A stretch of 32,000 nucleotides of DNA from Candidatus Saccharimonadota bacterium. GTDB taxonomy: Bacteria > Patescibacteriota > Microgenomatia > UBA1406 > GWC2-37-13. The notes beneath the pieces are model-generated. The model saw only the letters and a list, made by a program, of their open reading frames with translations, was not told the origin of the DNA and did not search any database. The stretch is from the NCBI GenBank assembly GCA_016700135.1, contig CP065004.1:360001-392000 (forward strand), written 5' to 3'. A program made the position numbers and the translations under genes. Positions 2,658 to 25,492 of the stretch are shown here, in pieces. Position 1 is the stretch's first letter. The number at the start of each line of letters is the position of its first letter.

Positions 2658-3101
2658 TTACTCTCCGATCTTGAGCTGGAAGATATCCCCTTTCCCTCCG
2701 AGGAAAAGCTGATCAATGGTAAAGAGAATCAGATACGCACTCACATACACGACAAGTCCTATCACCGCCCAGGTAAAGGTCTTTTTCGCATCCTCCACTT
2801 TCCCAGGGTCACCGAGAGATAAGAGATATTTGTAGCTTCCGATGACAAACATTACAAAGATTACCAGCAGAATCAATGCGTTAGTCATCAACAGCAGGTT
2901 TCCCGTCACGACTTCCAAACATTTCAATGTCGGTACCCCGTTTACAAGACAGGTATTTCCCGGAGCATCAGGCGGTAATCCCGTATCTTTCCCGTCCAGA
3001 TCATTCCATTCTTTGATCTGAGCGGATACCTGATACGGCATCAGAATAAAAAGAGAAATTATGAATGATGAGGTTAACCAATACGCAGTTTTGAATTTCA
3101 T
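2658..3101 (-). CDS. TrbC/VirB2-type (T4SS-like) pilin, paralog 1
   Basis: Signal peptide (..YQVSAQ), a short Cys-containing ectodomain, then two TM helices flanking a small charged loop (LGDPGKVEDAKK). This is the layout of conjugative-type pilins common in CPR genomes. Confidence 0.65.
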   Translation of the reverse strand: MKFKTAYWLTSSFIISLFILMPYQVSAQIKEWNDLDGKDTGLPPDAPGNTCLVNGVPTLKCLEVVTGNLLLMTNALILLVIFVMFVIGSYKYLLSLGDPGKVEDAKKTFTWAVIGLVVYVSAYLILFTIDQLFLGGKGDIFQLKIGE

Positions 3102-3200: not shown

Positions 3201-3782
3201 TTATTTACAGGTCTTGGTCGGATCAAATGCGTCGATGACAACATTGGTACAACCGTTAGTTGCATTAACAGCGCTACACAGTCCCCCTGTATTGGAGACA
3301 CAGGTACAACAATTTTCTCCTGTTGTTGTCTCAACAAGTCCGGGAAGAGTCAAAGGACAGGAAAGTCCGAGACAGATTCTTCTCTTGAAAATAACCTGCT
3401 CGAGTGTCCAGATGATGGCAAGTACCGCAACGATCAAAATCATCCCGATTACCGCTGCCTGTATCTTTTCACGTGCTGCCGATACTGCATCCTTATCTCC
3501 TCCTGAGGTCACCCATGCAAAGGCGCCGATCAGCATGTAAAACAGTGCCGCAAGTCCCGCAATCACAAAGAAAGCGCGGATTGCAAATGTCAAAATATCC
3601 CCAAGTGACGGAATCTGAAATCCAAGTTCACCCGTCTGAATGGAGGTACATGCCGGGTATTCTTGATATTTAGCGGCCGAACATGCAGCTGAGACGTCTC
3701 CTCCTGTTAAAAAGATGAATGCGGTAAAGACCAGTGACAGTACCAGTCCGTGCATCATCAGTTTTCTATAAATATTTTTCAT
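3201..3782 (-). CDS. TrbC/VirB2-type pilin paralog 2 with Cys-rich C-terminal extension
   Basis: Signal peptide (..GGDVSAA), a two-TM pilin core with loop SGGDKDAVSAAREK, then a tail ICLGLSCPLTLPGLVETTTGENCCTCVSNTGGLCSAVNATNGCTNV.. with many Cys. TATTAT lies 6 nt upstream of the ATG. Confidence 0.7.
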   Translation of the reverse strand: MKNIYRKLMMHGLVLSLVFTAFIFLTGGDVSAACSAAKYQEYPACTSIQTGELGFQIPSLGDILTFAIRAFFVIAGLAALFYMLIGAFAWVTSGGDKDAVSAAREKIQAAVIGMILIVAVLAIIWTLEQVIFKRRICLGLSCPLTLPGLVETTTGENCCTCVSNTGGLCSAVNATNGCTNVVIDAFDPTKTCK

Positions 3783-3824: not shown

Positions 3825-4505
3825 TTACAATGCCGTGGCCTGCCCTGCATCATCACATTTATACTTTGCCGTATTGACAATCTGGCCAAGAGCATTCGTA
3901 TTTCTGTTCACACAGACACAGCAATAATCACCATCTGTAGTTCTCTCAATAAGTCCGGGAAGTGTCAAAGGACAGGAAAGTCCGAGACAAACTCTTCTCT
4001 TGAAGATTACCTGCTCCAATGTCCAGATGATCGCTAGTACAGCAACAATCAAAATCATTCCGACTACAGCTGCCTGTATCTTTTCGCGTGCTGCCGACAC
4101 CGCATCTTTATCTCCTCCTGATGTCACCCAGGCAAATGCTCCGATCAACATATAGAAAAGAGCTGCAAGGCCCGCAATCACGAAAAATGCACGGATCGCA
4201 AATGTCAATATATCCCCCAAAGACGGTATCTGAAACCCAAGCTCACCTGTCTCAATATTGGTACAGGAAGGAAACCGGCTTTTTGCATCGTTTGAGCTCC
4301 AAGTAAGTTCTGCGTTTGTTTTTGAATTGTATTGTTTCGGGCAATCAAGAGCTGCAGCATTTGCGTCTACAGCAAAAACAGACGCACCTGAGCTTACCAT
4401 CGGAAGGAAAAATCCGTATACAAAAATTCCAATGACAAACAAAAGTGAGATTTTGGAAAGTAGCGAATGTTTTGACATAGATAAATAAAATGGTATTTCC
4501 TTCAT
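3825..4505 (-). CDS. TrbC/VirB2-type pilin paralog 3 with a different Cys-rich C-terminal extension
   Basis: Its 100-aa core is identical to paralog 2 at 98 of 100 positions. The N-terminal ectodomain and C-terminal tail (..DGDYCCVCVNRNTNALGQIVNTAKYKCDD..) are divergent. The start is uncertain: ATG at 4505 or the in-frame ATG at 4478 (MSKHSLLSKISLLFVIG..). Confidence 0.7.
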   Translation of the reverse strand: MKEIPFYLSMSKHSLLSKISLLFVIGIFVYGFFLPMVSSGASVFAVDANAAALDCPKQYNSKTNAELTWSSNDAKSRFPSCTNIETGELGFQIPSLGDILTFAIRAFFVIAGLAALFYMLIGAFAWVTSGGDKDAVSAAREKIQAAVVGMILIVAVLAIIWTLEQVIFKRRVCLGLSCPLTLPGLIERTTDGDYCCVCVNRNTNALGQIVNTAKYKCDDAGQATAL

Positions 4506-4541: not shown

Positions 4542-6062
4542 TTAAGACTCTTTTGCTCGATACTGGAGAGCTTCGGTGATATGCGGAGTACTAATCTTTT
4601 CAGAACCATCTAAATCAGCAATTGTACGGGAAATTTTGATCATCTTAAAATATGATCGTGCGGAAAGACTGAGACGCTCAACAGCTTGATTCAGTATCTG
4701 AAATGCCTGTTCTTCAAGTGTGCAGCATCTTTTGGTATCCGATGAACTCATCTCACTATTAAACGAAATATTAGTTTTATCGAACCTCCGTTTTTGCATG
4801 AAACGAGCTTTTTCAACCCGAACACGAATTTCTTGACTCGATTCTGATGTATACGTCTCGGACAGTTTTCCCACCTCCACAGGCTGCACGTCAATATGCA
4901 GATCAATCCTGTCAAGAAGAGGCCCGGACAATCTTTTCTGATAACGGTATACAAGGCTTGGTGAACACTTGCATGCTCTTTTCGGATGTCCGAGATATCC
5001 GCATGGACAGGGGTTCGATGCCGCCAGAAGAAGAAATCTGGCCGGAAATGTCAAAGTGCCTGCAGCCCTGGAGACCGTCACAATACCGTCCTCTATCGGT
5101 TGTCTCAAAGCCTCAAGGACACTTCGTGGAAATTCGGGAAACTCATCAAGAAACAATACGCCCCGGTGGGACATCGATATCTCGCCTGGAGTTGGATTGC
5201 TCCCGCCGCCGATCAATCCGACGCGGGATATCGTGTGATGTGGAGCACGGAAAGGACGAACTCCGTCAAAAATCTCTCTTGAGATTTCACCTGTGACGGA
5301 ATAAATTTTGGCTACTTCCAGCATCTCGCGTTTATCAAGTAAAGGAAGAATAGTCGGCATTGATCTTGATAGTAAAGTTTTACCTGCCCCCGGTGAGCCT
5401 TTCAGATGCACATTATGAAATCCCGCAGCCGCAATCTCAAGAGCTCGCTTTGCCTGTTCCTGACCCTTGATCTGAGAAAAATCATACAAACCGGGCGGGT
5501 TTCCGTTTTCTCTCCGGTCAACAACGTGTAAATATCGGTCTATACGTTCTTTTCCTGTAAGATGAGATATCAATTCTTCAAGGGAACCTACCGGATAGAT
5601 ATCAATATCATCAAAAATTGATGCTTCTTCAACATTTTCTTTCGGAATATAAACTGTGGTAATTTGTTTTTCTTTAGCCAGAATAATGAGCGGGATAATC
5701 CCGTTCACACGCCGTACATGCCCTTGAAGTGAAAGCTCTCCGATAAACATGCTTTCTCTAAGTGCGGACTGTTCCAAAACCCGGGAAGACGTCAGAATAC
5801 CTATTGCAATCGCAAGATCAAAAGCAGTTCCTGATTTGGGAACATCGGCGGGAGCGAGATTGACGGTGATGCGAGAATCAGGCATTTCATATCCGGCATT
5901 GGAAACTGCAGTCCTGACCCGCTCTTTTGCTTCATCAATTGATTTTCCAGGCAGGCCGACAATAGTAAAAGTGGGAAAGCCGCGGCCGGCAACGTCTACT
6001 TCAACTTCTACAAGCACTCCGTGAAGACCGAGAGTTGATCCGGCTGTAACTTTTGAAAGCAT
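4542..6062 (-). CDS. comM: YifB/ComM family Mg-chelatase-like AAA+ ATPase
   Basis: Full-length 506-aa match to the ComM pattern: N-terminal Lon-protease-like domain, Walker A GSPGAGKT, ..LFLDEFPEF.., C-terminal ChlI-like region. TATAAT lies 7 nt upstream of the ATG. Confidence 0.92.
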   Translation of the reverse strand: MLSKVTAGSTLGLHGVLVEVEVDVAGRGFPTFTIVGLPGKSIDEAKERVRTAVSNAGYEMPDSRITVNLAPADVPKSGTAFDLAIAIGILTSSRVLEQSALRESMFIGELSLQGHVRRVNGIIPLIILAKEKQITTVYIPKENVEEASIFDDIDIYPVGSLEELISHLTGKERIDRYLHVVDRRENGNPPGLYDFSQIKGQEQAKRALEIAAAGFHNVHLKGSPGAGKTLLSRSMPTILPLLDKREMLEVAKIYSVTGEISREIFDGVRPFRAPHHTISRVGLIGGGSNPTPGEISMSHRGVLFLDEFPEFPRSVLEALRQPIEDGIVTVSRAAGTLTFPARFLLLAASNPCPCGYLGHPKRACKCSPSLVYRYQKRLSGPLLDRIDLHIDVQPVEVGKLSETYTSESSQEIRVRVEKARFMQKRRFDKTNISFNSEMSSSDTKRCCTLEEQAFQILNQAVERLSLSARSYFKMIKISRTIADLDGSEKISTPHITEALQYRAKES

Positions 6063-6127: not shown

Positions 6128-8167
6128 TTACATTCCTTCTGTTTCAGCAGCCTTTTTCTTGTAGACATATACTGCTAGCAGCGCACCGGCTCCTCCTACA
6201 AGAAGAAGCAAGATTGCGGCAACAAGGATCATCGGGTTCCGCTCACCTTCTTCAGTCGTTTCTGCTTGCTGAGTAGCCTGTTTGTCTTTTGTCTGGTCTT
6301 CAGTCATGATCGGACTGACCTGCTGTTCGGGTACAAATTCCGGAGTGACTGTGCGGCGCGGATTAGTCGTTGCGGTAACCGGAGTGTATAAAGCAATCTG
6401 CTCCGCCGTCAGGAACTCTTTATTCTGATTGAGATAATCTGCAATCCTGAGTTCTGCAGTCGGCTTGTACTCTTCTCCGTCTGCTGTCAGGTACTTGATG
6501 ATATACGGTTCTTTCGGGATATTTTCTGATGTAATTCTGTAGAAACCGTTATTATCAATCGGCGCAACATATTGAGGCACCGGCATACTGATGAGGTACA
6601 GGCCTACATATCCTCCGCGGATAAGCTTTCCGTCTTGATCGTATGCATAACCTTCCAGATAGGAAGGGATTGAATTGAGGGCAAAGCCGCCTTTCAACGA
6701 TTCTGTCTCAGATGACGTCATTGTCTGAAGATTTATCTTTCTGAATGACCTCTTGTAATATTCACCGGGTTGAAGCTCTGACTGCTTCAAAGTTACATTA
6801 AATCTTCCTTCTTTGTCAGCCCCACCGTTAAGTTTTCCGAAGATTTTTCTGTCACCGCAGACCTCAACACCGTTGTTCAGCCTACAGGTGTCAACAATAA
6901 CTTCGGCAAACGGATGTGAGACGCGCCCCTGAAATATGAGATCTCCGTTTGCTGCCGTTTTACTTTCGGAAGACAGGACAACCAAATCATAAGTTTTTCC
7001 AATGCCGTCCGTCGGTATAAACGGAATATCTCTGTGTTGGATAGCACCTCTTTGAAGAATTGCCGGGGAATCATTGAGATAAAAGTCAGAATAAATCTGG
7101 GCAGCATTTCCTTTTTGAGTCCAGTCTTTGGTCAAAGGATGGACATAACTTGCCAAGACCGGTGTCAGTCGATAGTCACCGTCCTCGACAAAGAATGAGA
7201 AGTCTCCGGCTGATCCTGTCATAAACGGATTCATAATCAGATTGTTTCGCTGCTTTGCATATCCTGCATCAAATGCCCCTTGAGGGTTTTTCTGAAGGAG
7301 TGAAACGGAAACACCCGGGATCGGTTCAAGTGACACAGAGTCAAAGACACGACCGTACGGATCCCAACCCGGTCCGAAATCACACTCATCCTGCTGGAAC
7401 TCCGTGACATCCCTCCATGTCAATTGGTCCTGTTGTTGTCCGCCCGTCCCCGATGCATCACGGCTTGCCGGTGTCGGGAGTACCTCCGGAACATAGTAGA
7501 CGACGTATTTACGTCTTGCCGCATACATCGTATATCCCTGTACTTCTCCGAACGTGACATTCAACTTCCCGGTTGCGTCTGTTTTCAGTTCTGTTGACGC
7601 ATCTGCTTGTCTGAACGGATCATTAACATCATTCAGATCTGAATTGGATTTATAGAAAAATCCGTGAGTATCGTTTAAGACAAATGAAGCCCCGTCACGA
7701 TTTTTGACGGTGTCGCCGTTTATTCCGTATGTGACACGATCAAGCTGATTGAGGTATGATTTCACGTCACAGGATGCACTGTCGCTTCCTCCAGCACAAT
7801 AAAATTGTTTATCGTTTTCCGAAAAACCGGTCGTACAGTACCAGTCAGCTTCACCGTCATTGTTATCATCACGTGCCGGTTCATCAGGCTTTATACATTC
7901 CATAAGAATGACTTTTTGGCCCGCAGGAATTGACAGTCCCCGGAAATCAAGCTGTGCGCGATGTCCCCAGTGCGAACTTGTATGAATCAGATCTGCCTGA
8001 GGATTATTTTTTGAAAGAGGGGCACAGTTCTCATTTCCTGCTCCGCCGCCACAGTGCTTGAAGGGCACACAAAGCGGCTGCCACACTGCAGGAGGAGTTT
8101 CTGCCGAAACGGTTTGAGGAATAATTAAAAGGGTTAGTAAAAGAAGGAAAATGCGTATATGTCTCAT
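6128..8167 (-). CDS. secreted, C-terminally membrane-anchored surface protein with carboxypeptidase-regulatory-like beta-sandwich modules (adhesin-like)
   Basis: Signal peptide MRHIRIFLLLLTLLIIPQTVSAE. Two segments have the G-x-V-x-D...G-x-F/Y-x-F...G-x-Y pattern (GRVFDSVSLEPIPGVSVSL..GDFSFFVEDGDYRL and GYAYDQDGKLIRGGYVGL..NGFYRITSE). C-terminal TM helix ILVAAILLLLVGGAGALLAVYVY followed by KKK. Confidence 0.7.
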   Translation of the reverse strand: MRHIRIFLLLLTLLIIPQTVSAETPPAVWQPLCVPFKHCGGGAGNENCAPLSKNNPQADLIHTSSHWGHRAQLDFRGLSIPAGQKVILMECIKPDEPARDDNNDGEADWYCTTGFSENDKQFYCAGGSDSASCDVKSYLNQLDRVTYGINGDTVKNRDGASFVLNDTHGFFYKSNSDLNDVNDPFRQADASTELKTDATGKLNVTFGEVQGYTMYAARRKYVVYYVPEVLPTPASRDASGTGGQQQDQLTWRDVTEFQQDECDFGPGWDPYGRVFDSVSLEPIPGVSVSLLQKNPQGAFDAGYAKQRNNLIMNPFMTGSAGDFSFFVEDGDYRLTPVLASYVHPLTKDWTQKGNAAQIYSDFYLNDSPAILQRGAIQHRDIPFIPTDGIGKTYDLVVLSSESKTAANGDLIFQGRVSHPFAEVIVDTCRLNNGVEVCGDRKIFGKLNGGADKEGRFNVTLKQSELQPGEYYKRSFRKINLQTMTSSETESLKGGFALNSIPSYLEGYAYDQDGKLIRGGYVGLYLISMPVPQYVAPIDNNGFYRITSENIPKEPYIIKYLTADGEEYKPTAELRIADYLNQNKEFLTAEQIALYTPVTATTNPRRTVTPEFVPEQQVSPIMTEDQTKDKQATQQAETTEEGERNPMILVAAILLLLVGGAGALLAVYVYKKKAAETEGM

Positions 8168-8257: not shown

Positions 8258-11200
8258 ATGAACATACGTAAGCTCATCATCATCGCAGCTTTTTTCTTCT
8301 TTTTTGTCCCGGCTAAACCGGTGAGTGCACAGATGGATTTTTACGGTTTTCCGCCTGTTGATAAGCCTCCGATTTTCTGCGGAAACCGCGAATCTCTGAC
8401 ATGTCCGAATGAAGTCGAGCCGATATATCAGGCCCTGCGTGATGCTGGGGAAAAAGACATATGTGCGACGAGCTACGCGGATTTCCTAACAGATCCGAAA
8501 ACAAAACATTACTGGATAGAAGACCCTGCCATTACGGCTCAGGGAAAAGCCGATGAACGTGCCAGACAGTTTTTGTACTGGGTCCTGAATACCAGCGCAA
8601 TTGACAATGCACGAGTTCTTACTGATATTTGGCAGTATACTGCGATGCTTGCTCTCTTCGGTGTAGTACTCGTAGCAGCTGTCTTCGGAATCGGCTATAT
8701 CATCAGTCAGCGTACAAACTATGACTTTAAAATCCGGATCTGGCCGACGATTATCAAAATAGGAACCATGTTGTTGTATGTGGCCTTCTCAGCTTCTATC
8801 GTGTTTTTCCTGATCCAGTTCTCGGAGGTCCTGATGAAATTTTCATACGAAAATCTGGGAGGTCAGAAGCTCTTTAATATATACTTTGCGGCAGACGACA
8901 ATCTTCTTGGCCGGACTGAAGCCAGCTACACAACATTCGTCGGCTGTCGTGACCTGAATATCCGTGTGCAGGAAGGAGTCGATGCTGAAATCTTTATGCT
9001 GAAACTGACCAATGTCAGTTACTACGTGATGGGAAGCATGCTCCTCTTGAGAAAAATTCTTCTCTGGTTTTTGCTTTTTGTATCGCCGTTTTTGGCGCTT
9101 CTTATGCCGTTTATTTTTATCAGGAACACGGGATGGATTTGGATCGGAGTATTTTTTCAGTGGCTTTTTTACGGACCTCTTCTCACTCTCTTTTTAGGTG
9201 CAATGGCAAAAATTTGGGAGTACGGTATTCCCTTTAGTTTTGACTTTTCACGTGTTGAAAAAATCGGCGGGTATATTTATCCGACAGGTATAAATATCGT
9301 ATACGGAGGACCTGCTCAAAGAATCTATGGAGCCGCTTCAGAAATACCTTCCCGTCCTATTAGCGCCATGAACAACGGCAGCTATGTCGACACCTTTGCC
9401 GAATATGTCATCACACTTCTCATGCTGTGGGCTGTCACATTCTTCCCCTGGTGGCTCCTTCGAATTTTCCGTGATTATTGCTGTGATGGGATATATGCTA
9501 TGAAGAATATTCTTCTGGCAATGTATGACAACATGCGCGGCGGACCTTCAAAAGGACCTACTCCATCCGGCCCCACAGGTCCTACTATGAAGTTGGATCG
9601 AAATATCCCGATCGAAACCGATATTAAAGTCTCTCTCGGATCACTTGCCCAGATGAAGAAATCCATGACAATCGATCTGGCGAAGAACCTCAATCTTTCC
9701 GCTTCCCGTATCACGGATATCGCAAGAGTCGAAACAAACAAGCAGATGCAAAGTGTCGTGAACCAAAATCTCACCTTCCTCGCAAATCCAGTAAAAGCGC
9801 AAAGACCTGCCGAAAGACAGCAGTATATGAATCTGCGGTCTGAGCTTTTTGCACGAGCTATTAAGAATGACTCAATGGCCCGCACGATCCTTGCCTCTAC
9901 TTCGACATCCGTGTCCGAGAAAACAAAGATCCGCGAATCGATCATCAAATCAATGCCTCAGACAATTACGATTTCTCAGGTTGTGACCGAAGAGACCCAC
10001 GTGCCGAAAGAAAAAGTCACGAATATAACAAATACCTATACCAAGAATATTACCAACAATACAAAAGCTATAGAATCGATTGCAAGATCCACGAACACTC
10101 CTCCGCAGATTGTAAACAACATTTTGAACTCATATAACAAGACAACGAACAGTCCAGTATCCAAAGTCGTCAACAATATTGCCAAAGAGAATAACACTTC
10201 AGTGAGTACCGTAAAACAGGTCCTCCAGCAGGCAGGTACAATCAGCTCACAGGCACATATGCTCCGACAGATTGCCACGGTGGAAAAACTGGACAGTAAA
10301 CAGATTACGAAGGTTCTGACCAGTATCAGATCCTCAGTCACCCGTGAAGAATCTACCGTCCAGGCAGTGGCCTCAACTACCCAACTTCCGCCGCCTCAGG
10401 TCGAACAGCTTGTCCAGCAGGCTTTTACTTCCGCAGTATCAAATGAACAGGTGATTGAGCAAATCGCACCGCCGACCGGTCAGCCGACAGTAATTGTCAA
10501 AGCGGTCGTCCAGTCTTTCGTCAAAAACATGAGTATGCCTGCAACGAGATTGGTAGAAAAAATTTCCGATGAGACAAAAGTCGAAAGAAGTACCGTTTCC
10601 CGTATCCTGAATCAGACATCAAAAGTAATGGAAAACAGCACTCTGGTGAAAGAAGTGGCCGAGAAAAATAATGTCACCACTCATGACGTCCAGACCGTCA
10701 TTGAAAAAGCCGTAGAAGTCTCAACAGTACAGACAAATCAGCCGGCCATTGCCGGTGTCGTCAAAGCAGCATCAAGTCAAACCACTGTAACTTCAAAAAC
10801 AATCCAAAATGTCATCAACGAAATTGCAAACAACCCAACAACAATCAAAAGCGTCGCAAATCAAACGAACATGCAGGAACATGAAGTTTCCAGTGTCATC
10901 AAAAGTTATGCCAATAACCTGAACCAAACGTCCGAGAATATCACTCACAAGATTGCACAGGAAACACAAATAAATGAAGGACAGGTCCAGAACATTCTGC
11001 AGAATGTTTCACAGGCAGTAACAAACTCGAAGACCGAACAAGCAACGATCGCAAAATCATCAAATGTCCAGAATGAAACCGTGCAGAAGATTTCACAGTC
11101 CATAGGCAGAACCGTTGAGGTTTCAAAAGACAAAACGGCACCGGCTGTCCAAAACATTGCAACCGCCTCATCCAGCGAAAGTACGACTATTCAGCAGATT

Positions 11201-12910
11201 CTTGAGACCTTCAGTCAGAACACAAACCTCACTACTCAGGTTGCTGAAGAAACCAATATGGAACAGCAGACTGTCTCACAGGTCCTCCAGTCATTCAGCA
11301 CCCATCTGAATGAATCCTCAAACACCATTATCAAATCAGTGGCATCAGACACAAAGGTGAGCGAAGAACATGTGAATTCAATTATTCAGTCAGCTGCAAC
11401 CGCTGTCTCAAATTCAAATACCTATCAGGAACAAATCACCCAGATTACGAATGCTCCTGTTGAAACAATCAAACAGATTGCTCAATCAGTCACGACTATC
11501 ACTCAAAAAACTGATACGACCCCGGTTGCAGATACCATCATTACGGATACCGCGACTAGTACAGCCTTGACAGAAGGAGATGTCACCAATGTCATCCAGA
11601 CATTTGCATCCAATGAAGAACTTATAAATCAGGTGGCACAGCATACTCAGATCGATGCAGCAACAGTCAAAAATGCATATGCCAGTTATACGCAGCACCT
11701 GACCGAGGCTCCGACAGAACTGGTGAAATCCGTGGCTACTGAAACTAACCTGACCCAGGAACAGGTCCAGAATATCATGCAGTCTTCTTCTGAAATATTG
11801 ACAAATGCTCCGCAAACTGTCACCCAGATCGCACAAACCACGAACATGTCCGAAAGCAATGTACAGAAGATTGCCAATGCAATGCCTCAATCAGTAACAA
11901 CTACTGCCGGACCGGAGACATCTATCATCAAACAGGTTTCACAGCAATCAAATATCTCAGAGACCGAATCACAGAAGATTATCCACAATCTTATGATGAC
12001 CGCCATCCAAAACGAAACCTTTGTCGAAAACCTGGCCAATCAGACACAGCTGAAAACACAGCAGGTGAAAAACATTATGTCAACCTATGCCAATAACATC
12101 AATCAGCCGTCAGAAAAAATTGTCCAGACAATCAACGAATCATCAGGAATACCAAAAGCAAGTGTCCAGACAGTTCTCATAACCCTTGCTGACTCCGTCA
12201 TCTCATCCGATCAGATCGTGGCACAGGTAGCCGAACAGGAAGGAATGGAACCTCAGCAGGTCAGCGATGTCATGCAGAAGCAGATGGAAGTAGCAAGCGA
12301 ACCGGAAAAACATATCGAAAAAACAATCTCGATTCCTCAGAGTATCTCACTCGAAGACTATGAGGAAGTGAAAGACATGTGGACTAAGCACTATGAGGAA
12401 GGTGAAGTTCCCGTCACGGATACGATCCAAACCCGAAAAGACTGGGTCGATCAGGAGATTGTATATATCACAAATACCCTCAATAAAATCCTCTCACCTG
12501 ATGAGCGTATGCAGCAGGAAGGACTGGACGAGCTCGGCTATCTCCTCCCGATTTTCCTGATCAACAACCTGAAGGGAGAGGAACTGATCGTGTATCTGAA
12601 AGCGAAGCTCGAAGCCGCCAAATTGACACAAAAGATACTCGAGCGCGAAGAAGCCGTAAAAGACCAGATGAAGAAAGATCAGGGCGAGGAAGAAGAAGTC
12701 CTGGTCGATGTGGCAAAGAAAGAAGAAGAAAATAAAGAAATGCACATGGATCTGGATGACGAAGAACAGGCTCCGAAAAGCATCGAAGACCGAGTCAAAG
12801 CCGTCCAAGAAAAGCTCGAATCTGTAGACACCCCCGAACCGACCGGTGATCAGACCGCCGATTCCATCAATGCCATTAAATCAAAACTACAAGAAAAGGC
12901 TGACAAGTGA
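8258..12910 (+). CDS. giant (~1550 aa) polytopic membrane protein, possibly TrbL/VirB6-like at the N-terminus, with a long HTH-like repeat tail and an acidic coiled-coil C-terminus
   Basis: Signal peptide MNIRKLIIIAAFFFFFVPAKPVSAQ (ATG 8258 preferred over the TTG at 8252). At least 5 TM helices in aa ~130-410, a Gly/Pro linker GGPSKGPTPSGPTGPT, ~25 degenerate repeats, then a KE-rich tail. The VirB6-like assignment is inferred from topology and the pilin neighbourhood only. Confidence 0.8.
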   Translation: MNIRKLIIIAAFFFFFVPAKPVSAQMDFYGFPPVDKPPIFCGNRESLTCPNEVEPIYQALRDAGEKDICATSYADFLTDPKTKHYWIEDPAITAQGKADERARQFLYWVLNTSAIDNARVLTDIWQYTAMLALFGVVLVAAVFGIGYIISQRTNYDFKIRIWPTIIKIGTMLLYVAFSASIVFFLIQFSEVLMKFSYENLGGQKLFNIYFAADDNLLGRTEASYTTFVGCRDLNIRVQEGVDAEIFMLKLTNVSYYVMGSMLLLRKILLWFLLFVSPFLALLMPFIFIRNTGWIWIGVFFQWLFYGPLLTLFLGAMAKIWEYGIPFSFDFSRVEKIGGYIYPTGINIVYGGPAQRIYGAASEIPSRPISAMNNGSYVDTFAEYVITLLMLWAVTFFPWWLLRIFRDYCCDGIYAMKNILLAMYDNMRGGPSKGPTPSGPTGPTMKLDRNIPIETDIKVSLGSLAQMKKSMTIDLAKNLNLSASRITDIARVETNKQMQSVVNQNLTFLANPVKAQRPAERQQYMNLRSELFARAIKNDSMARTILASTSTSVSEKTKIRESIIKSMPQTITISQVVTEETHVPKEKVTNITNTYTKNITNNTKAIESIARSTNTPPQIVNNILNSYNKTTNSPVSKVVNNIAKENNTSVSTVKQVLQQAGTISSQAHMLRQIATVEKLDSKQITKVLTSIRSSVTREESTVQAVASTTQLPPPQVEQLVQQAFTSAVSNEQVIEQIAPPTGQPTVIVKAVVQSFVKNMSMPATRLVEKISDETKVERSTVSRILNQTSKVMENSTLVKEVAEKNNVTTHDVQTVIEKAVEVSTVQTNQPAIAGVVKAASSQTTVTSKTIQNVINEIANNPTTIKSVANQTNMQEHEVSSVIKSYANNLNQTSENITHKIAQETQINEGQVQNILQNVSQAVTNSKTEQATIAKSSNVQNETVQKISQSIGRTVEVSKDKTAPAVQNIATASSSESTTIQQILETFSQNTNLTTQVAEETNMEQQTVSQVLQSFSTHLNESSNTIIKSVASDTKVSEEHVNSIIQSAATAVSNSNTYQEQITQITNAPVETIKQIAQSVTTITQKTDTTPVADTIITDTATSTALTEGDVTNVIQTFASNEELINQVAQHTQIDAATVKNAYASYTQHLTEAPTELVKSVATETNLTQEQVQNIMQSSSEILTNAPQTVTQIAQTTNMSESNVQKIANAMPQSVTTTAGPETSIIKQVSQQSNISETESQKIIHNLMMTAIQNETFVENLANQTQLKTQQVKNIMSTYANNINQPSEKIVQTINESSGIPKASVQTVLITLADSVISSDQIVAQVAEQEGMEPQQVSDVMQKQMEVASEPEKHIEKTISIPQSISLEDYEEVKDMWTKHYEEGEVPVTDTIQTRKDWVDQEIVYITNTLNKILSPDERMQQEGLDELGYLLPIFLINNLKGEELIVYLKAKLEAAKLTQKILEREEAVKDQMKKDQGEEEEVLVDVAKKEEENKEMHMDLDDEEQAPKSIEDRVKAVQEKLESVDTPEPTGDQTADSINAIKSKLQEKADK
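9677..12290 (+). repeat. protein-level tandem array of ~25 degenerate ~30-34-aa helix-turn-helix-like units in ~130-aa super-repeats
   Basis: Recurrent [IVL]xx[IV][AS]xx[TS]x[IVLM]xxxx[IV]xx[IV][ILM], for example ISDETKVERSTVSRILNQ, IAQETQINEGQVQNILQN, VAEETNMEQQTVSQVLQS. Every fourth unit ends in [ST][YF]xxx[LI]N, at nt ~10130, 10514, 10904, 11291, 11684 and 12083. Confidence 0.75.
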
Positions 12911-12934
12911 GGCTGAAGTTGATACAATACCTAC

Positions 12935-13474
12935 ATGAGTTATTATGATGAACAACAGGAAATTGCTCACGTTGATGAGCATGATACTATTCTTGACTCC
13001 GTTGAAAAATGGACAGCACACAAGAAGGGACTTCTTCACCGTGCGATAACTGTGGCAGTTTTCTACAACGACTATGCCATTCTGCAGCATCGGAAGCATC
13101 CCGTATTTGACAATGTATTTGATCTTTCAGTTTCCTCTCACCAGCTGATGATAAACGGAGAAATTGAAGCTGATGAAATTACTTTATACCGTACGATACA
13201 GCGTGAACTCGGTTTGACAGAGGAGCATTTGATTCAGAAACCGGTACACGACGGTTCTATTTATTACAAAGCAAAAGATCCCCATTCCGACTACATTGAG
13301 CATGAAGTCTGTCATATTTATACTTGCCGTACGAAAATCGTTCCTAAAATCAATCTTGAGTTTGCATACGGCTACTCTTTGCAGAAAGTTGAAGAAATTA
13401 AAAATAAAAAAAGCCCTCTCTACTCCATTCTGGCTCCCTGGGTCAAAGAGATGATTGCGAAAGAACTGATTTGA
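12935..13474 (+). CDS. idi: type 1 isopentenyl-diphosphate delta-isomerase-like Nudix-fold protein
   Basis: GLLHRAITV.., ..SVSSHQ.., ..RELGL.., ..EHEVCHIY.. and ..APWV.. align by eye with the E. coli Idi motifs (LHLAFS, SVCGHP, YELGV, ENEVCPVF, SPWM). TACAAT lies 6 nt upstream of the ATG. Confidence 0.7.
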   Translation: MSYYDEQQEIAHVDEHDTILDSVEKWTAHKKGLLHRAITVAVFYNDYAILQHRKHPVFDNVFDLSVSSHQLMINGEIEADEITLYRTIQRELGLTEEHLIQKPVHDGSIYYKAKDPHSDYIEHEVCHIYTCRTKIVPKINLEFAYGYSLQKVEEIKNKKSPLYSILAPWVKEMIAKELI

Positions 13475-14329: not shown

Positions 14330-14941
14330 CTACCTACAGTTCACCCAGGCTTTGTCACCTCCCCGGGACAGTTTGAAGGCTGTTGTTTCTATCGCTTCTT
14401 TTGCACCGAATCTGAGATCCGGATTTGTATCCGCTCCCATTTGAACCCGGGTTGCCTGCCAGGTCTCCACTGAGTACTGGAACATGCCGCCATACTCCCC
14501 GTTGTTTGCTCCAGGGTGACCGCCTGATTCACAGTATGCGATTTTTTTCATTACTTCCTTGTCCACTCCATACTGTCTGCTGTATTGGTCGAAATAGTTT
14601 TCAAAATCACTGGTCGGCATCGGAGTCGGGGTGGAAGTAGGAGTAGGACTCGGAGTATTGGTCGGGGTGGGAGTGTTGGTGGGAGTGAGTGTCGGTGAAG
14701 GAGTAAATGTCGGGGTAGGGGTTTGCGTAGGGGTAGGTGTCAGTGTCGGTATTATCACTACCCCGAGTACCTGACCGGTCGCCCTGACCCGATACGTCAC
14801 AAACAAAGATATGAAAAGCAGCGCGACTAGTGCCCATTTGTATTGTGAAAATAGGGAAACTGTTGCATCAGTCCGCCGCAGAGGACGCTTTCTGGTTGTG
14901 TGATACAAAGAATCTAAATACATACAAAAATAACAAAACAT
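14330..14941 (-). CDS. membrane-anchored Rpf-like transglycosylase-domain protein with a long Pro/Thr linker
   Basis: TM helix WALVALLFISLFVTY, a ~46-aa PT linker, then IAYCESGGHPGANNGEYGGMFQYSVETWQ, matching the resuscitation-promoting-factor type transglycosylase-like motif. The start is uncertain. The ATGs at 14941 and 14923 overlap the upstream gene by 74 and 56 nt. Confidence 0.7.
   Translation of the reverse strand: MFCYFCMYLDSLYHTTRKRPLRRTDATVSLFSQYKWALVALLFISLFVTYRVRATGQVLGVVIIPTLTPTPTQTPTPTFTPSPTLTPTNTPTPTNTPSPTPTSTPTPMPTSDFENYFDQYSRQYGVDKEVMKKIAYCESGGHPGANNGEYGGMFQYSVETWQATRVQMGADTNPDLRFGAKEAIETTAFKLSRGGDKAWVNCR
14612..14749 (-). repeat. low-complexity Pro/Thr linker-coding repeat
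   Basis: Encodes PTLTPTPTQTPTPTFTPSPTLTPTNTPTPTNTPSPTPTSTPTPMPT. The DNA is an imperfect (ggt/gg(a/g)gt)n-type repeat. Confidence 0.9.
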
Positions 14942-16184
14942 TGATTGCCGAAAGGATTATGACTATCGGATCTGATGATAGAGCCTGCACGATCGGCTCA
15001 ACTTTCGGAACCGACCAGCTTTTATATAAATTCAGAAAACTAATAAGTGAAAGTATACCCCATGCATACATAATGGAACGATATTTCACTGCCGGGACAA
15101 GAAGAAACGGCAGAATAAGTATAAGATACCGTTCATGCATTTTGGTTAAAAACAGGAATGACGCAAAAGCACAGAGTGAAAGTGCAATAAACAATGACAA
15201 CTTGCCCGAGCGGTTTTTCCAATATAAAACGGATAAGGCTAAGATAAACCCTCCGGCGATAATTGTCCCGACAGTCCCGTACGTAATACTGCCGATCAAT
15301 GAAGTCTCTGCCGGAACGAAAAACAATGGCGGATACAGGGCCCAGGCATTGTATGCGGCATTCGTTACCGCTCCGATACTCTGCGTATCAAGTATTCCTT
15401 CTTTGTAGAGAATAAACGGATACAGCGGGTCTCCCGGTTTCTGTGCCATCGGCTGAAATGCAAGCCAGAACAACAAAATACTTATCACAGCACCCTTCAA
15501 AGTTGTTTTCAAACCGTATCTTGAAAAAAATGAGATCATAAAAACCGGCAAAAAAACAAATACAGTAGGTTTAACAAGAACGGCAGCTGTCAGAATAACG
15601 AAACTCCAGTAAGGTTTCTTTACAAAAAAACTAAAATATACCGCCAGTGCCATAAGAAACAGCGGGATACTGTCAATCTGTCCGAAGAATGCGCTGTTGT
15701 AAAAGAAGGTCGGATGAAGAAGAATTAGGGACATGACCAGGACTTTCAGGTGTTTTCTTTTCGGATAAAGTTTTTCGGTGATCTGTGCTAAGATCCACGC
15801 AAGACCGAAATCGGAAAGGATCGCCGGGATTTTCATCAGACCTGCCTGAAAATGCAGACGCTCCATAAAAATCACAACGACAGAAGGAAATGCCGGAACG
15901 GTAAGATTGAGTTGCCAGAACGTCCCGAACAACCATTGATACAACGGATAAAACGGTGCAAACAATCCGATCGCAAGCGGCGGATAATTCGGGTATTCCG
16001 TACCATAAACGTCGATTGACCGCGTTTCATAAAACGCATAAAGCCCACGGTTCCATACGTCTTTTGCCCAGGAGATATGATTAAGCACATCAAAGCTGAA
16101 ATCGACAAACATAATACTGAGCCGGATGAAGATACCAAGAAGGATAATAACAAAAAAAGGAGACATCATTTTTTTCAGCGACAT
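14868..16184 (-). CDS. GT-C fold polyprenol-phosphate-sugar-dependent glycosyltransferase (DUF2029 / Gpi18-like mannosyltransferase type)
   Basis: 438 aa with ~11 TM helices. The first loop is FDVLNHISWAKDVW..YGTEYPNYPPLA, typical of this GT-C group. TATAAT lies 8 nt upstream of the ATG. Confidence 0.7.
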   Translation of the reverse strand: MSLKKMMSPFFVIILLGIFIRLSIMFVDFSFDVLNHISWAKDVWNRGLYAFYETRSIDVYGTEYPNYPPLAIGLFAPFYPLYQWLFGTFWQLNLTVPAFPSVVVIFMERLHFQAGLMKIPAILSDFGLAWILAQITEKLYPKRKHLKVLVMSLILLHPTFFYNSAFFGQIDSIPLFLMALAVYFSFFVKKPYWSFVILTAAVLVKPTVFVFLPVFMISFFSRYGLKTTLKGAVISILLFWLAFQPMAQKPGDPLYPFILYKEGILDTQSIGAVTNAAYNAWALYPPLFFVPAETSLIGSITYGTVGTIIAGGFILALSVLYWKNRSGKLSLFIALSLCAFASFLFLTKMHERYLILILPFLLVPAVKYRSIMYAWGILSLISFLNLYKSWSVPKVEPIVQALSSDPIVIILSAINVLLFLYVFRFFVSHNQKASSAAD

Positions 16185-22795: not shown

Positions 22796-24862
22796 CTACT
22801 GCAGCGGATCGGGGCCTTCCCCTAAGGCTCCCTCGACATAAGCGGAGACCAGCGGAAGGTACAACTCAAGCTGCAGGATCGGCATCTCGTCCTGGGGATC
22901 CAACGACATTGTCGGACCGTTGACTGCCGAAAGCTCATCGACCGTGATTGACTCCAACGTGAGCACTTGCGTGCCTTCCGTCGGAATAATCGTAAGATCA
23001 ACCGAACTGACAGGATCAGTCATGGAAGCCAAGGGTACGAAGCCGGCGTTCGGTTGAACAGTGTCGAAACCTGCCGCCATCACAGACTGAACACTCTGAT
23101 CAAACTGGAGTGCCAGGCCGCTAAACGGCTGTTCCGAGCTGATGCGGACCACCAGAGGCTGTGTGCTGATCACGGTCGTCGTGATGTTGGGCGTCTCTGC
23201 CACTTCAGCCGCAGCAACGGAATCACCGGGCAACCAGTTGCCGGTGACGTCACACATCAACCAAAGCTTGGTGATATGCCCACTGCTTGTCGGACCGTTC
23301 ACTTCAACAGTGATTGCTTCGCCGCGCCAATCGCCGCAAGCAGCATCCGAATCATTGTAACGCGCAGCGAACCGCAGGATGCGGTTGGCATCGTAGCTCG
23401 TGATGGGTTGCTTATCGTCGGCGTCCGCGCTCCACTCCATATACGGAATACCGAAGGTGGTGCGGAGAGCCGCCCGCTGATGAGTAAGTGCGGCATCCAT
23501 AGAGCTTACGGCATGCCGATCGTACTCGGACTTCTGCTTGGAGAAAGTCGCGGTCCACGTTCCCATAGTCGGGAGTGCGGCAGTGTAGCCGCCGTCCCAA
23601 CCGGTCGTGGCCGTGACAACGTCGATCCCGTTAGACAGAGTGACCGTCACATCCTTCATGGGCTTATTGCCGTTCCAGAAGTAGACAGCGCCCGTCCAGA
23701 GGCTGGCGTTTACGGTCACCTGACCGTATTCACCCGCCACGGGCATCGAACCGCCGTTGATCAAGACCTCCGGCACCTGTACGCCCGAAAGCATCACAGG
23801 AACGGTCCCTGCCCGCAGCGCCCGAAACTTCAGGCGAAGCATGAGGCCGGAATTGGTCGTGATCGGCTGTTGTCCCTGTCCGGTGATGATAATCGAGCCG
23901 GGAGTACCCGTGTTCAGGATGTACTGGAAGTTCTGCGTCGCCGTTCCTGCCTGATCAATACCCACAAACGAAAGATGCGTCGGCGAATACTGCAGCCGCG
24001 CATCGATGCTGTAGATCTGACCGGTGTTGTTGCGGAATTCCAGCGGAACCATGATCTCATTCCCCACGACGGTTGTCGTATCGGGGATGGTCAAAGTCAC
24101 AGGCAAGGTCCAGTCCCAACTGACCAGAAGACACAAAGGTGCCTGGTCGGTGGGCTGTAGCTTGATCTCAACGCTGCCTTGATTCTGATTCAGGCGCCAG
24201 CCTTCATAGGCATTGTTAGCCAGTTGGCGCCAATCAGTTGCCCCCACCAGTCGATAGTAGATCTCCCGCCCGACAAAGATGTTCTGGATAGTCGGATAGG
24301 TAGAGCCGTCATTCCAACGGTTGATTACGACCATCGGGCCGTTCAGGCACGTTGTTGCGTCATGCATGCTGTTGGTCTGACCACCATGAGACATACTCAC
24401 GTGGACCGCAACAGGATCAGTTTCCTGTCCGTTGCGAACGAAGTAGGTGCTTTTGGGTGTCATGTTAGCAGAAAGCTGACGCATGTCGATCTGGCCATTC
24501 TTGAGGCGGGCCTGGATGACAAAGTCACTGAACACCGTAGAGCTTGTGTTGTTGACATACACCTGGAGGTTACCAGGGTAACCCCAGTGGTGTCGGACAC
24601 TACTGCCCATCACGGGTTCAGCCGCCGCCCGAACTTCTTCGCCGTTCTCCAAAACGCTCAAGTCGCCTTCGAGAAGACCCTTCAAAACCACCTCATCGGT
24701 GATCTGAACGGGCTGCGAATCGACTTCTTGAGCATAGGCCGAGACGTGGGTCGCGAACATAGCCAAAAGTGCCATAAGCACCGCGACTGCCGCGAGTACG
24801 GTCCAATTCACACTCCGCTGCGGCATCGCCGCTACTTTGACCTGATACTTCTTGGTATACAT
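22796..24862 (-). CDS. secreted multidomain protein with a cohesin-like domain and a dockerin-like module
   Basis: Start moved to ATG 24862 (MYTKKYQVKVAAMPQRSVNWTVLAAVAVLMALLAMFATHVSAYAQE), which has a GAGAGGA SD 4 nt upstream. Cohesin-like segment at ~23705-24112 (VVGNEIMVPLEFRNNTGQIYSIDARLQYSPTHLSFVG...LRLKFRALRAGTVPV). Dockerin-like segment at ~23355-23525 (AVSSMDAALTHQRAA ... DADDKQPITSYDANRILRFAA). Confidence 0.65.
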   Translation of the reverse strand: MYTKKYQVKVAAMPQRSVNWTVLAAVAVLMALLAMFATHVSAYAQEVDSQPVQITDEVVLKGLLEGDLSVLENGEEVRAAAEPVMGSSVRHHWGYPGNLQVYVNNTSSTVFSDFVIQARLKNGQIDMRQLSANMTPKSTYFVRNGQETDPVAVHVSMSHGGQTNSMHDATTCLNGPMVVINRWNDGSTYPTIQNIFVGREIYYRLVGATDWRQLANNAYEGWRLNQNQGSVEIKLQPTDQAPLCLLVSWDWTLPVTLTIPDTTTVVGNEIMVPLEFRNNTGQIYSIDARLQYSPTHLSFVGIDQAGTATQNFQYILNTGTPGSIIITGQGQQPITTNSGLMLRLKFRALRAGTVPVMLSGVQVPEVLINGGSMPVAGEYGQVTVNASLWTGAVYFWNGNKPMKDVTVTLSNGIDVVTATTGWDGGYTAALPTMGTWTATFSKQKSEYDRHAVSSMDAALTHQRAALRTTFGIPYMEWSADADDKQPITSYDANRILRFAARYNDSDAACGDWRGEAITVEVNGPTSSGHITKLWLMCDVTGNWLPGDSVAAAEVAETPNITTTVISTQPLVVRISSEQPFSGLALQFDQSVQSVMAAGFDTVQPNAGFVPLASMTDPVSSVDLTIIPTEGTQVLTLESITVDELSAVNGPTMSLDPQDEMPILQLELYLPLVSAYVEGALGEGPDPLQ

Positions 24863-24866
24863 GATA

Positions 24867-24874
24867 TCCTCTCT
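24867..24874 (-). promoter_or_regulatory. Shine-Dalgarno AGAGAGGA
   Basis: TCCTCTCT on the plus strand, 4 nt from ATG 24862. Confidence 0.6.
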
Positions 24875-25492
24875 TGTACTTGATTGTGTTAATTGAAGGC
24901 CGGATGATAGCAATGAAACACATTCCGGGACGTACGGGGATCAGGGCATTTCTGCCCTTTATCCTCTATTCTTTTTTTCCTTTCTTATGATTTTCATCTT
25001 CCTTTCGTCCTGACACAGTGAGTGTCAAAGGTAGATGATTGCGAATTCTAAAGCTAAGGGATTAGCCTCAAAACTTCGCAATCATAACCTCAAAAGACTA
25101 AGAAAAATGATATTGTCATAAAAATTGACATATTTCGTATAAGCTCAATATGAGCTTATTTCATTTTCCACAAGTTGTTAATGTGCCCCAACTTCGTTGA
25201 ATTTGAGCTCAACTTCGTTGGACAATAGCAAGTCTGCGACTTTGTTATCTCGTTTAGACACTATTCCCGCTAAAAGCTGTTTCAGGGGTAAGGATCTAAG
25301 TGAAGATAATCAGTACGTAGAATTCGAATTGTGTTGAGGTGAAAAGTAACAGCTTGTGTTACATTACACACTCAATGTGTATATTATACCACAAAATGCC
25401 ATATTTATCTACTACTATAGGATATATAAAAGCTGATATACTCCGTGTGTATTTTTACTCAAAAACCTTTGAAACTATAAGTATAATAACGT

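Follow-up and report, generated by a model that had tools for sequence, protein, structure and literature searches.

The window analysed here is a stretch of 32,000 nucleotides from Candidatus Saccharimonadota bacterium (GenBank assembly GCA_016700135.1, contig CP065004.1, positions 360,001–392,000 of the forward strand; Microgenomatia in the GTDB lineage), and the gene in question is the open reading frame (ORF) at nt 8258..12910 on the + strand, whose translation gives an extended VirB6/TrbL-like protein of 1550 aa. We read it as probably, though far from certainly, the VirB6/TrbL inner-membrane channel subunit of a Microgenomatia type IV secretion system (T4SS), of the extended type, with a tail that would be a variable-length cytoplasmic helical spacer carrying a conserved head. 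What is new is an undescribed helical module on a VirB6-type subunit, in an array with oppositely charged, conserved ends and a variable middle, and the family is a candidate for the missing VirB6 channel subunit of Microgenomatia in at least 177 species-level genomes. In the one member of the Patescibacteria that is genetically tractable, epibiotic growth requires the T4SS (PMC10633639), and the function of the extension of extended VirB6 proteins, described as not yet known, is a general T4SS question (PMC12857230). The modules are cleanly delimited and their natural number goes from 0 to about 15, which makes the family a tractable system for questions of extension length and head binding.

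The protein, all parts of which are encoded on the + strand, begins with a signal peptide or N-terminal anchor (aa 1–24, nt 8258..8329) that ends in PVSA before a Q, was located by hydropathy scan and is modelled by AlphaFold as a helix at residues 3–16; its basic n-region is kept across the family. A predicted extracytoplasmic N-terminal region follows (aa 25–128, nt 8330..8641), with the invariant residues Cys41, Cys49 and Cys69 (alignment columns), and is net acidic in 60 family members. The five-helix TrbL/VirB6-like membrane core (aa 129–427, nt 8642..9538), placed by hydropathy, AlphaFold, BLASTP and Foldseek, holds the transmembrane helices (TM) TM1 129–152, TM2 163–188, TM3 254–284, TM4 291–317 and TM5 381–404, the last with a helical extension to 427. 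Loops of 65 and 63 aa lie between the membrane helices in both the hydropathy scan and the AlphaFold model, and 1107 hydrophilic residues follow the core. Just past the last membrane helix there is a Cys-Cys pair (FRDYCCDG, aa 408–409, nt 9479–9484), which is invariant in the close family and absent from the short Levybacteria-type relatives.

The Pro/Gly linker GGPSKGPTPSGPTGPT (aa 428–443, nt 9539..9586) is modelled with a pLDDT <50, and its counterpart is Pro-rich in all relatives. It is followed by a single unit resembling a helix-turn-helix (HTH), found by a hidden Markov model (HMM) of the unit (aa 466–497, nt 9653..9748, ...LAKNLNLSASRITDIARVETNKQ) and kept as 'LxVPxLRDIARxE' even in distant relatives without modules. 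Then come module 1 (aa 503–631, nt 9764..10150; module HMM E = 9e-22), which is basic with a pI of 10.1 and conserved, modules 2–6 (aa 632–759, 760–889, 890–1018, 1019–1149 and 1150–1282, nt 10151..12103; E 1e-22 to 1e-35), and module 7 (aa 1283–1413, nt 12104..12496), a conserved and acidic terminal variant (net −14) that has the top score (E = 3e-37) and ends in S.EDYEEVK.MW..YE.GEVP....R..W......ITNTLNK (invariant alignment columns). The post-module motif GLDELGYLLPIFLINNLKGEELIVYLKAKLEAAK (aa 1414–1460, nt 12497..12637) is the best-conserved segment of the whole protein, and a Lys/Glu-rich acidic C-terminal tail (aa 1461–1550, nt 12638..12907), for which a pI of 4.4 and a net charge of −14 were computed, completes the sequence.

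A divergent VirB6/TrbL-type membrane domain

BLASTP aligns residues 86–451 of the protein with P0286 at E = 9e-46 and 30% identity over 383 aa, a stretch that includes all five membrane helices. P0286, P0326 and P0290, three relatives of the short-form protein P0229 (Levybacteria and Daviesbacteria, Microgenomatia), score 29.5, 26.3 and 26.0 bits respectively against the Pfam family TrbL (PF04610), for which the cut-off is 25.9. An HMM of the N-terminal domain matches all 98 relatives of the P0229-type short group, and TrbL/VirB6 is the Pfam family matched by the largest number of family members (7 of 44). These comparisons show the N-terminal 430 aa to be homologous, at the level of sequence, to TrbL/VirB6 domains, and since the TrbL proteins concerned pass the Pfam threshold, the N-terminal domain should therefore be a divergent TrbL/VirB6. 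In the AlphaFold model of aa 1–481 (pLDDT 71, pTM 0.65) the signal helix is followed by five long membrane helices. A signal peptide, five helices and large loops are as expected for a polytopic VirB6-type protein, the orientation of which we infer below.

The gene context was counted in 32 related loci with full 10-kb flanks. Genes for VirB4/PrgI or T4SS pilins lie within 10 kb in 29 of them. VirB4 is present in 14, and 11 of these 14 carry the set of VirB4, TraC-like and PrgI genes; pilin genes together with ComM are found in 15. The T4SS-type membrane component that had been assumed in an earlier note, made from the sequence of the window alone, is thus identified as VirB6/TrbL by transitive homology and by gene context. 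With a VirB6-type domain in T4SS gene neighbourhoods the protein is therefore an 'extended VirB6', a term defined by a VirB6-type membrane domain with a large hydrophilic C-proximal domain (PMC12857230), both of which are present. In a phylum-wide survey VirB6 homologues were reported to be scarce in Microgenomatia, 'suggesting extreme sequence divergence' (PMC12102498), and the family is a candidate that fits this gap.

The protein resembles canonical VirB6/TrbL proteins (PF04610; TrwI of R388 and VirB6 of A. tumefaciens) in its five membrane helices, in an N-terminus and large loops that are predicted to lie outside, and in the linkage of its gene to VirB4, VirB3/PrgI and VirB2-like pilin genes in the family. 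Unlike them it is below detection by the Pfam model, and it has a cleavable-looking signal peptide, a Cys-containing outside N-terminal region and 1100 extra residues.

The modular array

The repeats in the tail were analysed by BLOSUM62 autocorrelation over aa 461–1360. The strongest signal is at lag 32 (z = 7.8), with other peaks at lags 18 (z 6.9), 14 (5.0), 65 (6.6), 97 (4.2), 129 (3.4) and 260 (5.5), and the maximum z in 200 composition-preserving shuffles was 4.1. Lags 14 and 18 correspond to the two helices within a unit. The earlier note had described about 25 tandem HTH-like units of about 32 aa, organised in four-unit super-repeats of ~130 aa, and the autocorrelation bears out the shorter period. 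Every peptide that the note quoted is present in its place, and the residue pattern given for the units occurs four times as written (shuffle mean 0.01) and 12 times in a relaxed form (shuffle mean 0.30, max 3), spaced at multiples of ~32. With the domain E limited to <= 0.01 the unit HMM finds 19 units, and with a permissive threshold it finds 24.

A module HMM, which was built from the window protein and then refined on homologues, finds seven tandem copies of ~130 aa at aa 503–1413, each with an E of 1e-22 to 3e-37, and the longer period of the note is real as well. Its [ST][YF]xxx[LI]N anchors (aa 625, 753, 883, 1012, 1143 and 1276) are the module ends. The tail had been placed at nt 9677–12290, corresponding to aa 474–1344; a repeat tail is indeed found there, but the array spans nt 9764–12496, past that end, and is preceded by the unit at aa 466–497. 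Each module consists of four related units paired as (A-B)-linker-(C-D), giving two halves, and the self-similarity of the module profile has its top lags at 32, 36 and 68, with the highest at 68. The self-similarity of units and modules therefore indicates a hierarchy that goes from the hairpin (32 aa) through the pair (66 aa) and the module (130 aa) to the array. The evolutionary unit is the ~130-aa module, which gives a much stronger signal than the 32-aa period. The modules of the window protein are pairwise 10–30% identical, and at the DNA level no tandem repeat was found beyond a 23-bp chance match, indicating that the repeats are ancient and not products of slippage.

The ~900 residues after the linker are rich in T, S, Q, V, N and I. 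The composition that the earlier note had reported for the array is also found, with 42% S, T, N and Q together, 1% G and no Cys or Trp. The AT skew is strongly positive (0.27–0.34) over window positions 10001–13000 and the GC skew is negative over 10001–12000. This anomaly is limited to the repeat-coding part of the gene and is due to a coding strand rich in Q/T/N/K/E codons, not to replication.

Among 5.8 billion proteins searched, 390 relatives were found. None has a name other than 'hypothetical', if any, and those with a stated organism come from Roizmanbacteria, Woesebacteria, Microgenomates or Patescibacteria. At least 177 of 185,579 species-representative genomes carry a relative. Many contigs with the gene (loci L008, L011, L012, L014 and many others) have titles from outside this group. 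Most often the title is 'uncultured Gammaproteobacteria bacterium' (TPA_asm), as for L008, which is 98% identical to the window; Weeksellaceae and Limisphaerales each occur once. Mislabelled bins seem to be the cause here, rather than a true taxonomic spread.

Among the best 120 of the 390 homologues the number of modules goes from 2 to 13 and follows protein length (r = 0.97), which rises by ~148 aa with each copy from a constant part of ~600 aa; in a representative protein of 3266 aa there are 15 matched module stretches. Four relatives with 65–98% identity to the window protein all have seven modules. Variation of the copy number between strains, which had been put forward as a possibility, was therefore rejected, and the number is stable among strains, differing only between deeper lineages. 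An exhaustive search of 1.84 billion representative proteins with a profile of the last two modules gave 199 proteins at E <= 0.001, and every full-length match also has the N-terminal membrane domain, the rest being short fragments. The occurrence of the module in other protein architectures was rejected on this ground, and the module is therefore exclusive to the present one.

The two ends of the array are conserved and the middle is not. Segments were compared with those of orthologues at a distance where the membrane core shows about 76% identity; here module 1 is 53–62%, modules 2–6 are 20–45% and module 7 is 52–69% identical, and the 47 residues of the post-module motif are 77–87% identical. 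Across the orthologues the range is 53–98% for module 1 and 77–100% for the post-module motif. Homologues with two copies hold the first and last module types only. The minimal architecture of the family is thus a basic first module with an acidic last module, and the middle modules are fast-evolving, lineage-specific insertions that number from 0 to >10. Distant relatives of ~665–740 aa have no complete module and retain the pre-module unit, the terminal S.EDYE.VK.MW..Y...VP...R..W and YLKAKLEAAK. Of the tail, it is the last ~50 aa of module 7 that the most distant relatives share. The charge is also polarised along the array. From module 1 to 7 the pI is 10.1, 9.5, 6.7, 4.9, 4.4, 4.7 and 4.3; the first module has a mean charge of +7 and is positive in 99% of 93 homologues, the last has a mean charge of −12 and is negative in 100% of homologues. 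The net charge of the whole tail is −35 and the family mean per module is −2.8.

Modules 6–7 were modelled by AlphaFold from an orthologous alignment of 39 sequences. The model is all-alpha with a mean pLDDT of 78, in agreement with the all-alpha tail proposed earlier and at odds with low-confidence disorder, and no strands are predicted. Module 6 is modelled as eight helices in four hairpins with a pLDDT of 74–94 except in the internal linker. In a predicted unit a first helix of 9–12 residues leads through a 3-residue turn (N-x-S/T) into a second one of 13–17 residues, an arrangement seen in 7 of the 8 modelled units at the level of secondary structure. The relative placement of the modules is undefined because of a pTM of 0.52. 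Foldseek with the two-module model gave nothing at E <= 0.001 in PDB and BFVD, the best matches being designed alpha/alpha toroids with TM-scores <0.3 and E >= 0.2, and the sequence profile of two modules matches only de novo designed helical proteins among the PDB chains, with weak matches to HU and sigma-28. The C-terminal 221 aa have no match in PDB by sequence and none in Pfam. The array shares with the designed toroids (dTor 3x33L/5byo) and other designed helical repeats the tandem ~32–33-residue helix-loop-helix units. dTor_3x33L is the best match and insignificant (E >= 0.03 by sequence), and unlike the designed proteins the natural array is made of 130-aa four-hairpin modules parted by loops and is not a uniform solenoid. 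With neither a Pfam, an NCBIfam nor a PDB counterpart the module is a previously undescribed helical module, and the earlier note was right that no described repeat family covers it, Pfam, NCBIfam, PDB sequence and Foldseek searches (PDB, BFVD) having all failed.

The architecture as a whole is less unprecedented than the note had held, since 'extended VirB6' proteins with a repeat-laden hydrophilic extension are a known category (PMC12857230, PMC3556328); it is the module that is without a described family. The Rickettsiales extended VirB6 proteins (VirB6/RvhB6 paralogues such as VirB6-3 and VirB6-4 of Anaplasma phagocytophilum) and TraG of the F plasmid likewise have a TrbL/VirB6-type polytopic N-terminus, extended at the C-terminal side by a large hydrophilic part. 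The Anaplasma extension consists of tandem repeats, which differ in number between genomes and become increasingly acidic (PMC3556328, PMC7648143). The Anaplasma repeats are, however, recent, nearly identical in DNA and strain-variable, whereas the window modules are ancient and stable in number at 65–98% protein identity. The window protein differs further from the Rickettsiales proteins in a module sequence that finds only its own family among the 1.84 billion representative proteins, in its host, a monoderm bacterium of the Candidate Phyla Radiation (CPR), and in a tail with conserved, charge-polarised ends.

Location and possible function of the tail

We consider it fairly probable that the tail lies in the cytoplasm. 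The signal peptide and the four invariant Cys in predicted outside segments (alignment columns) place the N-terminus outside, and with five membrane helices the C-terminus should therefore be in the cytoplasm, as in canonical VirB6, where the N-terminus is periplasmic and the C-terminus cytoplasmic (PMC7648143). A cytoplasmic tail also fits the basic character of the juxtamembrane region. In the arrangement that we propose, the basic first module would sit under the membrane, and the middle modules would form a semi-rigid spacer, adjustable in length, by which the reach of a conserved acidic head is set. This head would comprise the last module, the LPIFL...YLKAKLEAAK motif and the acidic tail, and may be the functional end, docking at the cytoplasmic base of the system with a partner such as VirB4 or accessory proteins, or with the substrate or its carrier. 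The HTH-like hairpins would be structural building blocks and not DNA readers, and if VirB6 is pentameric as in R388, five arms might stand around the channel entrance. The 'tether or fibre' suggested in the earlier note is compatible with such a spacer.

Several observations weigh against a cytoplasmic arm on a VirB6 channel subunit. Neither the window protein, at E <= 0.01, nor its N-terminal 481 aa, at E <= 0.1, has a direct match to Pfam TrbL, and the link to VirB6 is for this reason transitive. When the model of aa 1–481 was compared by Foldseek with 350,542 PDB chains the top three matches were to TrwI/VirB6 of R388 (E = 0.37, TM-score 0.25–0.40), which by themselves are not significant. 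No VirB4 gene was found in the window. The positive-inside bias of the short loops is weak, and the cytoplasmic location therefore rests mainly on the helix count. The geometry between the modelled modules is undefined at the pTM given above. Finally, the S/T/N/Q content and the fast divergence look more like those of surface proteins, and the repeat extensions of VirB6-3 and VirB6-4 in Anaplasma were found to be surface-exposed despite similar predictions (PMC7648143).

Exposure of the tail on the surface is a serious rival, if a rather unlikely one in our estimate. The family would be the same, with the tail outside the cell, either as a surface fibre or tether of adjustable length that crosses the wall to the host of these presumed epibionts, or in a released or translocated form, as has been proposed for other proteins of the extended VirB6 type. 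The 42% of S, T, N and Q in the array compares with 13–28% in the other window proteins tested, the array is without Cys, and the stretch after the last membrane helix is a Pro-rich linker. Fast divergence and a number that shifts between lineages give the middle modules the look of partner-facing surface proteins, and the neighbours are pilin genes and the gene of a secreted, anchored protein of 679 aa. Trypsin reaches the C-terminal repeats of VirB6-3/VirB6-4 in intact Anaplasma cells, and F TraG acts in mating-pair contacts and entry exclusion through its hydrophilic C-terminal domain (PMC7648143, PMC3556328). One signal peptide with five membrane helices puts the C-terminus inside, however, and the third hydrophobic stretch, of 34 residues and modelled as one helix, is too short for a hairpin. 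In 99% of homologues both module 1 and the segment next to the membrane are basic, the C-termini of canonical VirB6, Brucella VirB6 and ComB6 are cytoplasmic (PMC7648143), and the far end of the tail is its most conserved part, which is atypical for a host-facing tip under diversifying selection.

A bolder version of the cytoplasmic tail, which we regard as improbable, makes the array a new fold family and a length-tunable T4SS arm of ultrasmall bacteria that would replace a substrate-recruiting coupling factor, the basic, membrane-proximal modules holding nucleic acid on its way in or out at the mouth of the channel and the conserved acidic head recruiting the ComM-type ATPase or VirB4. If true, it would tie the T4SS of Patescibacteria to DNA uptake or delivery.

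More doubtful still is the nucleic-acid-contacting HTH array suggested in the earlier note, taken here as cytoplasmic and as guiding DNA to or from the T4SS channel in a competence- or conjugation-like process together with the neighbouring ComM-type ATPase. The resemblance to HTH exists at the level of the motif. Against Pfam the natural protein gives weak, recurrent and sub-threshold matches to HTH_IclR (30.1 bits when summed over the whole protein), MarR_2, HTH_Tnp_ISL3, Sigma70_r3 and HU, and the relatives give a similar pattern. A consensus module matches ~100 HTH-type families, the best being the N-terminal helix pair of HU, positions 2–43 of 90, in four stretches, though scores obtained with such an idealised sequence are inflated. 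A basic pI is found in modules 1 and 2, and in 15 of the 32 loci a ComM/Mg-chelatase-like ATPase gene is adjacent. In the natural protein, however, no single stretch is above any family threshold and no complete HTH domain (IclR, MarR, sigma-70 r3/r4 or LacI types) was found. The matches are limited to a 20–40-residue two-helix piece of each profile; those to HU/IHF (Bac_DNA_binding) stop at profile position 32–43 of 90 and so contain neither the full domain nor its DNA-binding arms. NCBIfam has no match for the N-terminal domain and for the tail only a sub-threshold one to BcepMu_gp16, again a two-helix match.

The likeness to HTH motifs and to the helix pair of HU/IHF (HU-CCDC81, HU-HIG, Sigma70_r3/r4, IclR/MarR) consists in the spacing hydrophobic-x-x-hydrophobic-Ala...turn...hydrophobic-x-x-hydrophobic-hydrophobic and in the predicted geometry of helix, 3-residue turn and helix. 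Unlike those domains the window units have no third helix, wing or beta-arms, and the turn has an Asn and a Ser/Thr cap in place of Gly; the likeness is that of a shared building block, not of membership. The conserved positions of the modules are those of the hydrophobic core and the second helix has no conserved basic residues. A basic surface for DNA contact is likewise lacking, with a pI of 4.3–6.7 in modules 3–7 (4.3–4.9 in modules 4–7) and a negative net charge of the tail and of the average module in the family. The acidity of most modules makes a DNA-binding HTH array unlikely, and judging from sequence features we conclude that the hairpins are structural units with the shape of an HTH and do not serve to bind DNA. 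Contact with nucleic acid or lipid is conceivable for the two basic, membrane-proximal modules only.

That the protein is a polytopic membrane protein outside any T4SS, with a low-complexity and largely unstructured tail whose periodicity is a by-product of composition, is hardly credible: the missing VirB4 gene in the window, the missing direct TrbL match and the strongly biased composition would suit it, but the periodicity is far above that of composition-preserving shuffles, the modules reach E 3e-37 and are conserved across 177 species-representative genomes, the AlphaFold helices are confident, and both the homology to proteins that pass the TrbL threshold and the T4SS genes within 10 kb in 29 of the 32 loci speak against it.

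Neighbouring genes in the window

Three tandem genes for VirB2-like T4SS pilins were identified with Pfam and NCBIfam on the − strand (nt 2658–3101, 3201–3782 and 3825–4505). The first matches T4SS_pilin (PF18895) with E = 7.6e-11 and the second with E = 0.0028, and all three have weak matches to Mbov_0395-type pilins in NCBIfam. Several divergent pilin genes are a peculiarity of the T4SS loci of Patescibacteria (PMC12857230). The pilin genes of the window are followed by a gene for a ComM/YifB-type Mg-chelatase-like AAA+ ATPase (nt 4542–6062, − strand), which lies between the pilin genes and that of a secreted protein, and keeps its position in 15 of the 32 related loci. ComM-family proteins have a role in natural transformation in other bacteria. 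By analogy, the linkage of ComM to T4SS pilins might hint at DNA uptake.

The secreted protein of 679 aa (nt 6128..8167, − strand) carries, from its translation, a signal peptide and, at the C-terminus, a membrane anchor; its N-terminal part is rich in Cys. It belongs to no Pfam or NCBIfam family. Its gene is located upstream of the VirB6-like gene and is divergent from it. A homologue of ~660 aa is found directly upstream in 27 of the 32 loci, and the 679-aa protein may be a conserved partner of the extended VirB6. The homologues are sometimes duplicated and show faint matches to CarboxypepD_reg (Ig-like). 'Pam' pilins with an Ig fold are described for Saccharimonadia and Microgenomatia in a preprint of 2026 (10.64898/2026.03.03.709456).

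Immediately downstream of the giant gene, and perhaps co-transcribed with it, is a gene for a 179-aa protein with a weak NUDIX match (nt 12935–13474, + strand; E = 0.002). Its homologue is present in the flanks of 16 of the 32 loci, mostly directly downstream and in some cases on the opposite strand several kb off. Another gene, 1.4 kb downstream of the giant gene, encodes a 203-aa protein with a Thr/Pro-rich linker and a transglycosylase-like domain (nt 14330–14941, − strand; PF06737 with E = 1e-6, SLT weak), and is present in 11 of the related loci examined. It is a candidate for a VirB1-like wall hydrolase. The ORF overlaps another on the same strand (nt 14868–16184) by 74 nt.

No Rfam match was found in the whole window. 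Between positions 21000 and 25000 the G+C content is 49–59%, compared with ~43% in the genome, and long ORFs are found on both strands. One of these, at nt 22796–24913 on the − strand, encodes a cohesin-domain protein (PF00963, E = 2e-10), and the TTG start listed for it is probably too far upstream. Among 87 loci a counterpart of the cohesin segment is present only in L001, a syntenic locus of Roizmanbacteria UBA1450, and this high-G+C segment may have been horizontally acquired.

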